Part shown: positions 35,567-37,240 of the stretch, one piece after another | How positions within the stretch are numbered: position 1 is the first letter of the stretch | Layout: every line of letters begins with the position of its first letter | Sequence record: KM092515 | DNA: 64,000 bases | DNA from: Escherichia phage HY02 | Direction: 5' to 3' (one strand) | Translations under genes and position numbers: made by a program | Notes under the pieces: model-generated | What the model was told of the DNA's origin: nothing | What the model saw: the letters and a program-made list of their open reading frames with translations, nothing else | Databases searched by the model: none

Positions 35567-35658
35567 AATGACCTCAAAGTTATATTAAATTTTGTATTAC
35601 ATTGAGTATAAAAATAAGCTATAACACCTGACTTGTCAACAGATTTTATAGCTTATTT

Positions 35659-35788
35659 GGCAGATTTTTTATAAGGCTACTGCCATCCTTCCATACCTAA
35701 CCCAACCAGACCTAACCCCACCGAACCAAACCTTACCTTACTTCACCCTACCTTATTAAAAGACCCTCTTAAAGACCTTTTAAAAAGG
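35659..35788 (-). repeat. intergenic repeat copy 1 (C/A-rich tract plus TTATTAAAAGACCCTCTTAAAGACCTTTTA block)
   Basis: About 125-bp unit also at 36923-37046; contains NNACC pentamer-like repeats (GGT-rich on the coding minus strand). Confidence 0.6.
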
Positions 35789-35804
35789 AGCCTCCGAAGA
35801 GGCT
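35776..35804 (-). terminator. rho-independent terminator (minus strand)
   Basis: AGCCTC-CGAA-GAGGCT hairpin; on the minus strand it is followed by a TTTTT run. Confidence 0.5.
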
Positions 35805-35815
35805 ACCTAGTCAAC

Positions 35816-36256
35816 TTAGAAAGGTTTTCTACGTTGCTTGTTAATGTTAGCTTTCATAGCAGCTAAATGGTTTTGCTGTTCAATCAGTCGTGAACGTTCT
35901 TGATGACTAAGTGCCATAGTGTTCACATTCTCAATCGCTTGAGTGGCTTGCTTTAAAGCACGACCAATCTTACCAGACATTTTACGTTTTGCAATAGTTG
36001 CTTGATGCTTAGGTTCAACCACACGATAACCAACACCCATTGAAGCAACCAGATAAATCTTCTCTTCTTTAAGAAGCTTTTCAATAAACTTCTCAAGTCG
36101 GTTTAGACGTGTAAGTGCATAAGCCTTCATTTCATCTTCGTACTTAACAATGTCACCTTGATAAGTTGGCTTCACAATACCTAAGAAGGTATCCATCTCA
36201 GAGTGTGATACAGTGTCACCGTAACTAAACTTTGCTGCTAATGCTTTTGTATTCAT
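35816..36256 (-). CDS. hypothetical protein
   Basis: 146-aa ORF. Confidence 0.55.
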   Translation of the reverse strand: MNTKALAAKFSYGDTVSHSEMDTFLGIVKPTYQGDIVKYEDEMKAYALTRLNRLEKFIEKLLKEEKIYLVASMGVGYRVVEPKHQATIAKRKMSGKIGRALKQATQAIENVNTMALSHQERSRLIEQQNHLAAMKANINKQRRKPF

Positions 36257-36258
36257 AA

Positions 36259-36846
36259 TTAAACGTTACCTTCTGAAATAACTTCTACAGAAAAACGACC
36301 AAAGCGTGGACGCCAATCACCTACACCACAAAGGTTGCCAGCATTTTCCAGAACCATCAGGAGTTCCTCTCGTGTAATTTGCTCTTCATCGAACATCAAA
36401 CCAAACTCTACAGACCAATCACGGAAGATTGGACGGTAGCTCATAACTCGTGCTGTACCAATCTTAACAGACTTAGCGTAGATGAAGTCTGGATTCTTAG
36501 CAAGTTCTTGTGGGTTTGCTGGACAGTTCTTGATAGTCATTGGGAAGACTACATCTGTCAGCATGATGGCTCGGTCAATTACCTTACCAAGTTTGTTGAG
36601 TTTTGCACCAGACTTGATACAAGCCTCAATCATCTCACCGTTCATAACAAAACCTAGCTGCTCATCGTAGTAACAAGAAGTTACCAGTTGACTTTCTGCT
36701 AAGAGCGCATAGTCTTCGTCAGTCTTTTTACGTTTACTGGACAAAGACTTGTGATATTTTGTCAGAGGATTTAATGGGTCTGACAACGTATCGTTATGGC
36801 TCAGGAAAGGACGAGTGCCAGTGATTTTGATATTTAACAGTTTCAT
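36259..36846 (-). CDS. hypothetical protein (start moved to ATG with RBS)
   Basis: The track ORF starts at a GTG at 36861; the in-frame ATG at 36846 has a GGAG RBS. Confidence 0.55.
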
Positions 36847-36922
36847 AGCATTTAGCTCCACACTTTAGTTGATTGTTAAGTTGTTTGTAAAGAACCCTCA
36901 ACAGAAGACTCTTTAGAAACTT

Positions 36923-37046
36923 GGTAGATTTTTAACGTGGCTACTACCATCCACCCATGCTTTACCGTACCTGACAGTACAACACTTCAACTTACCCAAC
37001 CACACCTTACCTTATTAAAAGACCCTCTTAAAGACCTTTTAGAAAG
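36923..37046 (-). repeat. intergenic repeat copy 2
   Basis: Shares GGTAGATTTTT...GGCTACTACCATCC...CCTTACCTTATTAAAAGACCCTCTTAAAGACCTTTTA with copy 1; partial third copy near 37140-37180. Confidence 0.6.
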
Positions 37047-37240
37047 GTAAGTCTCATTTTAATGTAGCTGAGACTAACTACCCACACCAAACCATAGCAT
37101 ACATCGCATTACCGGACAGAGCCATACTTTACCAGACATCACTTAAAAACCCTCTTAGAAGACTCTTAAGTGATGCTGGTGAGTACCCGTCGGTTTATGC
37201 TGCTCAGTATACTCACCAAATTTTCTATGTCAACAACTTT

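Follow-up and report, generated by a model that had tools for sequence, protein, structure and literature searches.

We analyzed a 64,000-nt stretch of DNA from Escherichia phage HY02 (KM092515; the window, whose coordinates are used wherever no other sequence is named) and conclude with high confidence that this Felix O1-like phage carries at 35658-37233(-) a type II VIPR (Viral Interference Programmable Repeat) locus, which falls within the clade of phage SUSP1. Three modules within 35658-37175(-) flank genes for proteins of 195 aa and 146 aa, and each comprises, in order, a leader hairpin, 11-13 Y-N-N-G-G pentamers and a tail of ~33-36 nt that fits an H-type pseudoknot. The first of the two proteins is nearly identical to the RAMP of SUSP1, and the variable NN dinucleotides of two arrays match genes of a satellite element in E. 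coli chromosomes, in codon phase and at scores that no shuffled guide reached.

VIPR was described in a preprint of 25 June 2026 (bioRxiv 10.64898/2026.04.26.720920), which takes SUSP1, a relative of Felix O1, as its model. As set out there, the system consists of a phage-encoded minimal RAMP (Vipr), an accessory gene (vap) and guide RNAs (vrRNAs) of ~100 nt, which carry 9-16 YNNGG repeats, GGY being conserved and NN hypervariable, and end in an invariant 3' tail of ~40 nt with a pseudoknot. One vrRNA lies upstream and three lie downstream of the two SUSP1 genes, with guides that mostly target a satellite phage; the SUSP1 vrRNAs are reported to be expressed, to co-purify with Vipr and to repress transcription. 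The kind of system is already known from this very recent source, and the window adds another module arrangement and new guide-target pairs.

Vipr, vap and the layout of the locus

All genes of the region lie on the minus strand in the map of open reading frames (ORFs), and the locus holds only two protein genes, vipr and vap, which form an operon flanked by long non-coding regions, a feature by which VIPR loci are recognized. From 5' to 3' on the minus strand, the features are as follows.

37206-37233 (-): sigma-70-like promoter, TTGACA-N16-TATACT, directly after the ligase stop codon; 11/12 consensus matches, putative function
37137-37175 (-): leader hairpin C, stem CATCACTTAA/TTAAGTGATG, conserved loop GAGTCTTCTAAGAGGGTTT
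37082-37136 (-): vrRNA-C tract, 11 variable units, TCTGG TAAAG TATGG CTCTG TCCGG TAATG CGATG TATGC TATGG TTTGG TGTGG; guide NN, CT AA AT TC CC AA GA AT AT TT GT
37046-37081 (-): vrRNA-C 3' tail, H-type pseudoknot, S1 GTAG/CTAC, S2 AGTCTCA/TGAGACT
37010-37047 (-): leader hairpin B, stem CCTTTCTAAAAG/CTTTTAATAAGG, loop GTCTTTAAGAGGGT
36955-37014 (-): vrRNA-B tract, 12 units, TAAGG TAAGG TGTGG TTGGG TAAGT TGAAG TGTTG TACTG TCAGG TACGG TAAAG CATGG
36922-36954 (-): vrRNA-B 3' tail pseudoknot, S1 GTGG/CCAC, S2 GGTAG/CTACC
36883-36920 (-): array-less, leader-like hairpin D, stem GTTTCTAAAGA/TCTTTACAAAC, loop GTCTTCTGTTGAGGGT; immediately 5' of the vipr ribosome-binding site
36259-36846 (-): vipr, 195 aa, minimal RAMP (Cas7-like); ATG start at 36846 as in homologs (GTG at 36861 in the ORF list)
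35816-36256 (-): vap1 candidate, 146-aa accessory protein, second gene of the operon
35789-35804 (-): intrinsic terminator hairpin after vap, its T-run overlapping the 5' arm of leader hairpin A
35751-35788 (-): leader hairpin A, stem CCTTTTTAAAAG/CTTTTAATAAGG, loop GTCTTTAAGAGGGT
35691-35755 (-): vrRNA-A tract, 13 units, TAAGG TAGGG TGAAG TAAGG TAAGG TTTGG TTCGG TGGGG TTAGG TCTGG TTGGG TTAGG TATGG
35658-35690 (-): vrRNA-A 3' tail pseudoknot, S1 AAGG/CCTT, S2 GGCAG/CTGCC
35611-35639 (-): sigma-70-like promoter, TTGACA-N17-TATTTT, for the next gene (127 aa); downstream boundary of the locus

The 195-aa protein shares 97% identity over 200 aa with SUSP1 Vipr (KT454805.2 28477-29076) and is placed inside the SUSP1 clade because this exceeds the >90% identity by which the preprint defines it. 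It is a minimal RAMP, as expected of Vipr, with an RRM core, a Gly-rich loop and a thumb; its fold is that of Cas7 and not that of TRAP, and the C-terminal Gly-rich loop is invariant (G170, G174, R179, G183, F185). A profile built from this protein also finds an ORF beside the arrays in ~40 unrelated IMG/VR contigs that had been picked by DNA pattern alone. The 146-aa vap product is 99-100% identical in SUSP1, SUSP2 and wV8, and a homolog search found its relatives confined to this phage group; a low-confidence model gives it three helices, a beta-hairpin and long helices. Pfam and PHROGs returned no function for either protein and no Pfam Cas match.

The likeness to SUSP1 extends to the whole locus, which shares the genomic position between the ligase gene and a gp86-like gene, the YNNGG tracts with pseudoknot tails, the leader and tail sequences themselves and a vap that is 99% identical. 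HY02, a Felixounavirus, differs from SUSP1, a Suspvirus, in having two vrRNAs upstream and one downstream of the genes instead of one upstream and three downstream, in its guide sequences and in the many non-GG units of two of its three arrays. Our array scan recovered the published SUSP1 layout (one upstream, three downstream) in contig L016.

A fixed GGY register with hypervariable NN

The first-pass annotation, made from the letters of the window, had described a duplicated intergenic element with a shared block and a run of NNACC-like pentamers. The duplication is real, with 35705-35788 and 36964-37047 aligning as a direct repeat over 84 nt at 77% identity, and so is the block, a 37-nt sequence, CCTTACCTTATTAAAAGACCCTCTTAAAGACCTTTTA, with no copies in the 64 kb besides those at 35746-35782 and 37005-37041 (0 matches expected in shuffles). 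The pentamers turned out to be the key feature, reading as T-N-N-G-G units on the minus strand; the annotation had read them on the non-transcribed strand and had not connected the repeats to the two genes that they flank. It rightly judged the element to be more than a simple terminator, as the similarity extends far beyond the short terminator hairpin. What it had taken for a third, partial copy near 37140-37180 is the leader hairpin of a complete third module, since an array (37136->37082) and a tail, both missed in that reading, belong to it. The hairpins that it placed after each copy are present: one is the terminator of vap (35789-35804), the other the pseudoknot in the tail of the module upstream.

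Scored over 11 units (maximum 33), the periodicity reaches 32 at 35745->35691, 28 at 37014->36960 and 26 at 37136->37082, compared with a mean of 7.5 (sd 2.4) and a maximum of 19 on both strands of the remaining 64 kb, where the scan found no further pentamer array of this kind. Tallied over 64 unique arrays (814 units), the pentamer begins with T (.89) or C (.11) and has G at positions 4 (.82) and 5 (.98), while the NN positions use all 16 dinucleotide types. Perfect YNNGG units make up 92% of vrRNA-A.

To place the locus among its relatives, we compared 20 loci (17 from IMG/VR, garuso, wV8 and the window). Every locus holds 3-5 arrays at the same two intergenic positions; across the 20 phages GGY is fixed and NN hypervariable, with NN strings that are almost entirely different between arrays. 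Unit number per array ranges from 6 to 19 (median 12.5, constant leader units trimmed), and module number varies as well. This hypervariability coexists with the 99-100% identity of the 146-aa protein. Array C also occurs, identical, in another phage (L006).

For the 3.4 kb around the locus, 258 phage records, most of them Felixounavirus, show 80-99% identity, and the promoter at 37206-37233 is kept in wV8, FO1a and other loci. About half of the Felixounavirus records matching the region lack vipr (258 region records vs 116 vipr records) and keep at most one array. Felix O1 itself (Salmonella phage FO1a, L149) lacks vipr and vap and has one orphan vrRNA at 2620-2700(-): between its ligase gene and gp86, the promoter is followed by a single array of 11 units, which has a leader hairpin of the C type and a tail of the A type, apparently the remnant of a deletion between modules. 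The earlier suggestion of a recombination hotspot captures the variation in module number (3-5 per locus in near-identical phages) and the Felix O1 deletion, which we regard as a side effect and not as the function of the element.

When IMG/VR was scanned for exact runs of eight GGTNN units, at least 120 stretches were recovered, of which about half are plain microsatellites. Many of the others are heterogeneous arrays that cluster together in unrelated viral contigs, whose GC contents span 29%-60%. Up to 14 back-to-back arrays stand beside distant Vipr homologs in unrelated IMG/VR contigs (L024, L025, L032, L037, L118, L120, L128, L129, L131 and others), with type-specific terminal units (GGCAG; GGTAA GGCTA; GGAAT GGTTT), and L129 reaches 418 units. 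Rfam, searched with a permissive E-value over 35400-37400, gave chance-level matches only. In GenBank, fragments of leaders and tails are annotated merely as 'repeat_region' (DR_4; wV8, EU877232; L002 2710-2767 and 4103-4160; garuso, L001 3455-3496), and the accessible part of the Felix O1 genome paper (PMC3185647) does not describe the repeat regions.

Leader hairpins and pseudoknot tails

The four hairpins A, B, C and D have unrelated stems and a common loop motif, GTCTT..GAGGGT. Hairpins A-C each precede an array, and D precedes the vipr start. The C type stands before the first array in 20/20 related loci, and the sequence of hairpin D, after tail B, is conserved in all loci compared. We rejected the idea that the leader block is a general phage promoter, as its exact core, AAGAGGGTYTTT, occurs only at the array-bearing leaders A, B and C and is divergent at D. 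The leader hairpins may serve as a processing or loading signal; the accessible text of the preprint (bioRxiv 10.64898/2026.04.26.720920) makes no mention of them. A longer leader variant with a loop insertion (…GAGTCTTTAAATTATATTCGAWAGAGTATCTCATAGGGTTT…) is found in L010, L015 and L017 (about 3100-3150).

A single H-type pseudoknot accommodates every tail type, with three alternative pairings in S1 (AAGG/CCTT, GTGG/CCAC, GTAG/CTAC) and five in S2 (GGCAG/CTGCC, GGTAG/CTACC, GTCG/CGAC, AGTCTCA/TGAGACT, AATCGGA/TYCGATT). This covariation is a count of compensatory variants rather than the outcome of a statistical covariation test. S2 of tail C (AGTCTCA/TGAGACT) changes to AATCGGA/TTCGATT in other loci (TCCGATT in some), and tail B shows compensatory changes relative to both tail A (AAGG/CCTT, GGCAG/CTGCC) and the tail of the satellite vrRNA described below (GTCG/CGAC).

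Guides match satellite islands of E. coli in a gapped code

When the locus was compared with complete E. coli genomes by BLAST, the vrRNA tail alone matched, in 14 chromosomes. The first match lies in a ~10-kb island between wrbA and ymdF (E. coli 2013C-3492, L140 2340-13058) that encodes a serine recombinase and baseplate and tape-measure proteins, lacks vipr and has one vrRNA of its own (11978-12083; 15 units, with its own sigma-70 promoter and terminator and no leader hairpin). Sequence of this island matches 567/5426 complete E. coli genomes, with at least 80% of its length present in two genomes only, and insertion sites are several (wrbA, tonB, yecD/DUF72, dinB). Its baseplate protein is 69% identical to that of the window (21870-22634(+)) and its tape measure 31% identical (19615-21261(+)), in keeping with the idea of a satellite that relies on this phage group for its tail.

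We then asked, as an independent check of the published 1-nt skip code, whether the NN strings read these islands. Sixty unique guides (at least 10 units each) were scored against nine islands (142 kb), with 600 unit-shuffled guides as controls. When one target base was skipped after each NN pair, 37/60 guides reached an NN match of at least 0.8 (8/600 shuffled) and 12/60 at least 0.9 (0/600 shuffled); skips of 0, 2 or 3 bases gave no signal above shuffles with the same guides and islands. The skipped base fell at codon position 3, the wobble position, in 17/20 matches inside ORFs, and SUSP1 guides match E. coli satellites under the same 1-nt skip rule, likewise with the skipped base at wobble.

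The guides of the window were scored against 17 islands (289 kb), with 200 shuffles each. The ten variable core units of vrRNA-B match 20/20 at L150 13827-13855(-) (E. coli NCTC9082) within a 128-aa satellite ORF, in codon phase (target AAAGTCTGGAAAGACGTAACACAAACCAAT), a score reached by 0/200 shuffles (shuffle maximum 17). vrRNA-C matches 20/22 in a 236-aa satellite ORF (L143 6818-6849, L146, L147), again in codon phase (target CTAAAGATGTCACCAAAGCAAATTACCTTTGTG) and at a score reached by 0/200 shuffles. For none of the guides did the window contain a good self-target, the best self-matches being 15-18 of 22-26.

Two partial matches of vrRNA-A, each of seven consecutive perfect units, were seen. 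One, at L140 4680-4717(+), is antisense and in wobble phase within the baseplate gene of the satellite; the other, at L146 8888-8925(-), is out of phase in a 185-aa ORF. As whole-guide scores, neither is above shuffles.

Alternative explanations and known systems

The periodic tracts, hairpins and variable module number invite other explanations, each of which we weighed against the VIPR assignment. In the first, the modules would be terminator-promoter cassettes like the PeSL (promoter-early stem-loop) cassettes of T4-type phages, which only punctuate transcription and promote modular recombination, leaving the pentamer tract without function. PeSLs are likewise intergenic hairpin modules that recur where genes meet and are linked to neighboring DNA being gained and lost, and the terminator and sigma-70-like promoters at the borders of the locus, the variation in module number between phages and the inter-module deletion in Felix O1 all suit such cassettes. 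PeSLs, however, have no periodic pentamer tract, linked RAMP gene or trans targets, and a passive spacer explains neither a GGY register held over 814 units with NN free, nor NN strings whose codon-phase matches to satellite genes far exceed those of shuffled controls, nor the co-occurrence of arrays with a RAMP gene in unrelated phages. We consider this explanation very improbable.

A TRAP-like arrangement, in which (GGU-NN)n tracts would be 5'-leader sites for a ring-shaped RNA-binding protein exerting cis control of translation or termination downstream, seems to us just as far-fetched. TRAP sites are (G/U)AG repeats. Their layout is resembled by triplets with 2-nt spacers in 11-13 repeats, the Bacillus trp leader RNA having ~11 conserved triplets with 2-3 variable nt between them and a multi-subunit protein binder, and arrays C and B do lie within the probable 5' UTR of vipr. 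Array A, however, lies beyond the operon terminator, the satellite and Felix O1 arrays have no adjacent vipr, and the adjacent protein has an unrelated fold, that of Cas7. Moreover, TRAP spacers are uninformative and the RNA acts in cis, whereas here the spacers are the information; a site acting in cis would have no need of spacers that are hypervariable and match foreign genes. The earlier proposal of a regulatory RNA leader is right in that the element is RNA-coding and wrong as to a cis-regulatory leader, the modules being stand-alone vrRNA genes. The proposal of a protein-binding array fares similarly: GGY is reportedly bound by the neighboring RAMP, in place of a DNA site for early proteins. 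With GGY positions reportedly bound by the RAMP and the element RNA-coding, both proposals pointed in the right direction.

Hardly any probability attaches to the third alternative, that G-rich non-template tracts form R-loops or two-tier G-quadruplexes priming replication, as an origin, or that their C-rich complement is a Rho loading site stopping antisense transcription. GG recurs every 5 nt on one strand only, downstream of a promoter and inside a cluster of replication genes, and the array length of ~60 nt is near the Rho footprint; yet such a site has no need of the conserved pyrimidine, the pseudoknot tails or the linked RAMP gene and does not predict NN matches to satellites, and the absence of vipr from about half of the Felixounavirus records, with at most one array left, ill suits an essential origin.

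Nine ideas suggested by the sequence were rejected (TRAP-like attenuator; CsrA, Hfq or Shine-Dalgarno sponge; boxA/boxC antitermination; RfaH ops-like GGTAG; G-quadruplex/R-loop origin; antisense Rho loading site; telomere-like repeats; Chi-like sites; type III toxin-antitoxin RNA repeats) because none jointly explains the hypervariable NN, the RAMP-gene linkage and the satellite matches.

The VIPR locus also differs from class 1 CRISPR-Cas systems, in which Cas7, Csm3 or Cmr4 act with CRISPR RNA (crRNA). It lacks Cas1/Cas2 as well as large and small subunits, and we found no CRISPR repeat-spacer array in 34500-38500 and no cas1 or cas2 among the two protein genes of the locus. Two nt are read per 5-nt unit here, compared with 5 of every 6 in crRNA. 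The locus is encoded by a phage, the mobile element that its guides match is a satellite residing in the host chromosome, and the reported outcome is repression and not cleavage.

Discussion

How the HY02 locus would work can be sketched from its anatomy and from SUSP1. A single transcript carrying vrRNA-C, vrRNA-B, vipr and vap probably starts from the strong host-type promoter that follows the ligase gene; vrRNA-A sits beyond the vap terminator. According to the preprint (bioRxiv 10.64898/2026.04.26.720920), the GGY triplets are the sites where Vipr subunits bind, and the NN dinucleotides that these subunits present would read double-stranded DNA in a gapped register of two paired bases and one skipped base, and the Vipr-vrRNA complex would repress transcription of the target. 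The guides here would be aimed at the ~10-kb satellite island of E. coli chromosomes.

Several points weigh against this assignment or its functional part. The mechanism comes from a single preprint that is not yet peer-reviewed, and RNA expression, Vipr-vrRNA binding and repression in HY02 are presumed by analogy with the SUSP1 results reported there. For vrRNA-A, whose array is the best formed, the 17 islands yielded no significant target (best 18/22, equalled by 4/200 shuffles), and exact 1-nt-skip scans with 11 or 9 of its units in IMG/VR and 10 units in GTDB genomes were empty. Arrays B and C, in turn, have the lowest YNNGG conformity of the 64 unique arrays (58% and 55%), with units such as TAAGT, TGTTG, TACTG, CTCTG and TATGC. 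GGY perturbation is reported in the preprint to abolish silencing, and the activity of B and C is therefore uncertain despite their NN matches. Finally, the predicted DNA-binding fold of vap was not confirmed, its model being of low confidence and the fold search uninformative.

We raise as a tentative and rather doubtful possibility that the published description omits three features: the looped leader hairpins, vrRNA genes without vipr, and target-matching guides with degenerate GG. The leader hairpins, with an array-less copy before vipr, might act as a signal dedicated to processing, loading or autoregulation. The vrRNA genes without vipr in Felix O1 and in satellites suggest guides that use Vipr supplied in trans by a co-infecting phage. 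The degenerate-GG arrays B and C, with matches of 20/20 and 20/22, suggest that the GGY requirement is looser in nature than in reporter assays.

VIPR is a newly reported form of RNA-guided DNA recognition that uses a gapped code and a reading protein proposed to predate CRISPR RAMPs. The vrRNA-B guide with the satellite of E. coli NCTC9082, and vrRNA-C with the 236-aa satellite ORF, form two natural guide-target pairs that are directly testable, and intergenic 'repeat regions' in GenBank entries (DR_4, wV8) can be annotated as guide-RNA (vrRNA) genes. The system is present in Felix O1-like (Felixounavirus) typing and biocontrol phages, which are widely used and of which about half of the sequenced genomes carry VIPR, and the conflict between phage and satellite may affect the performance of these phages on those complete E. 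coli genomes (~10%) that have a match to the satellite.

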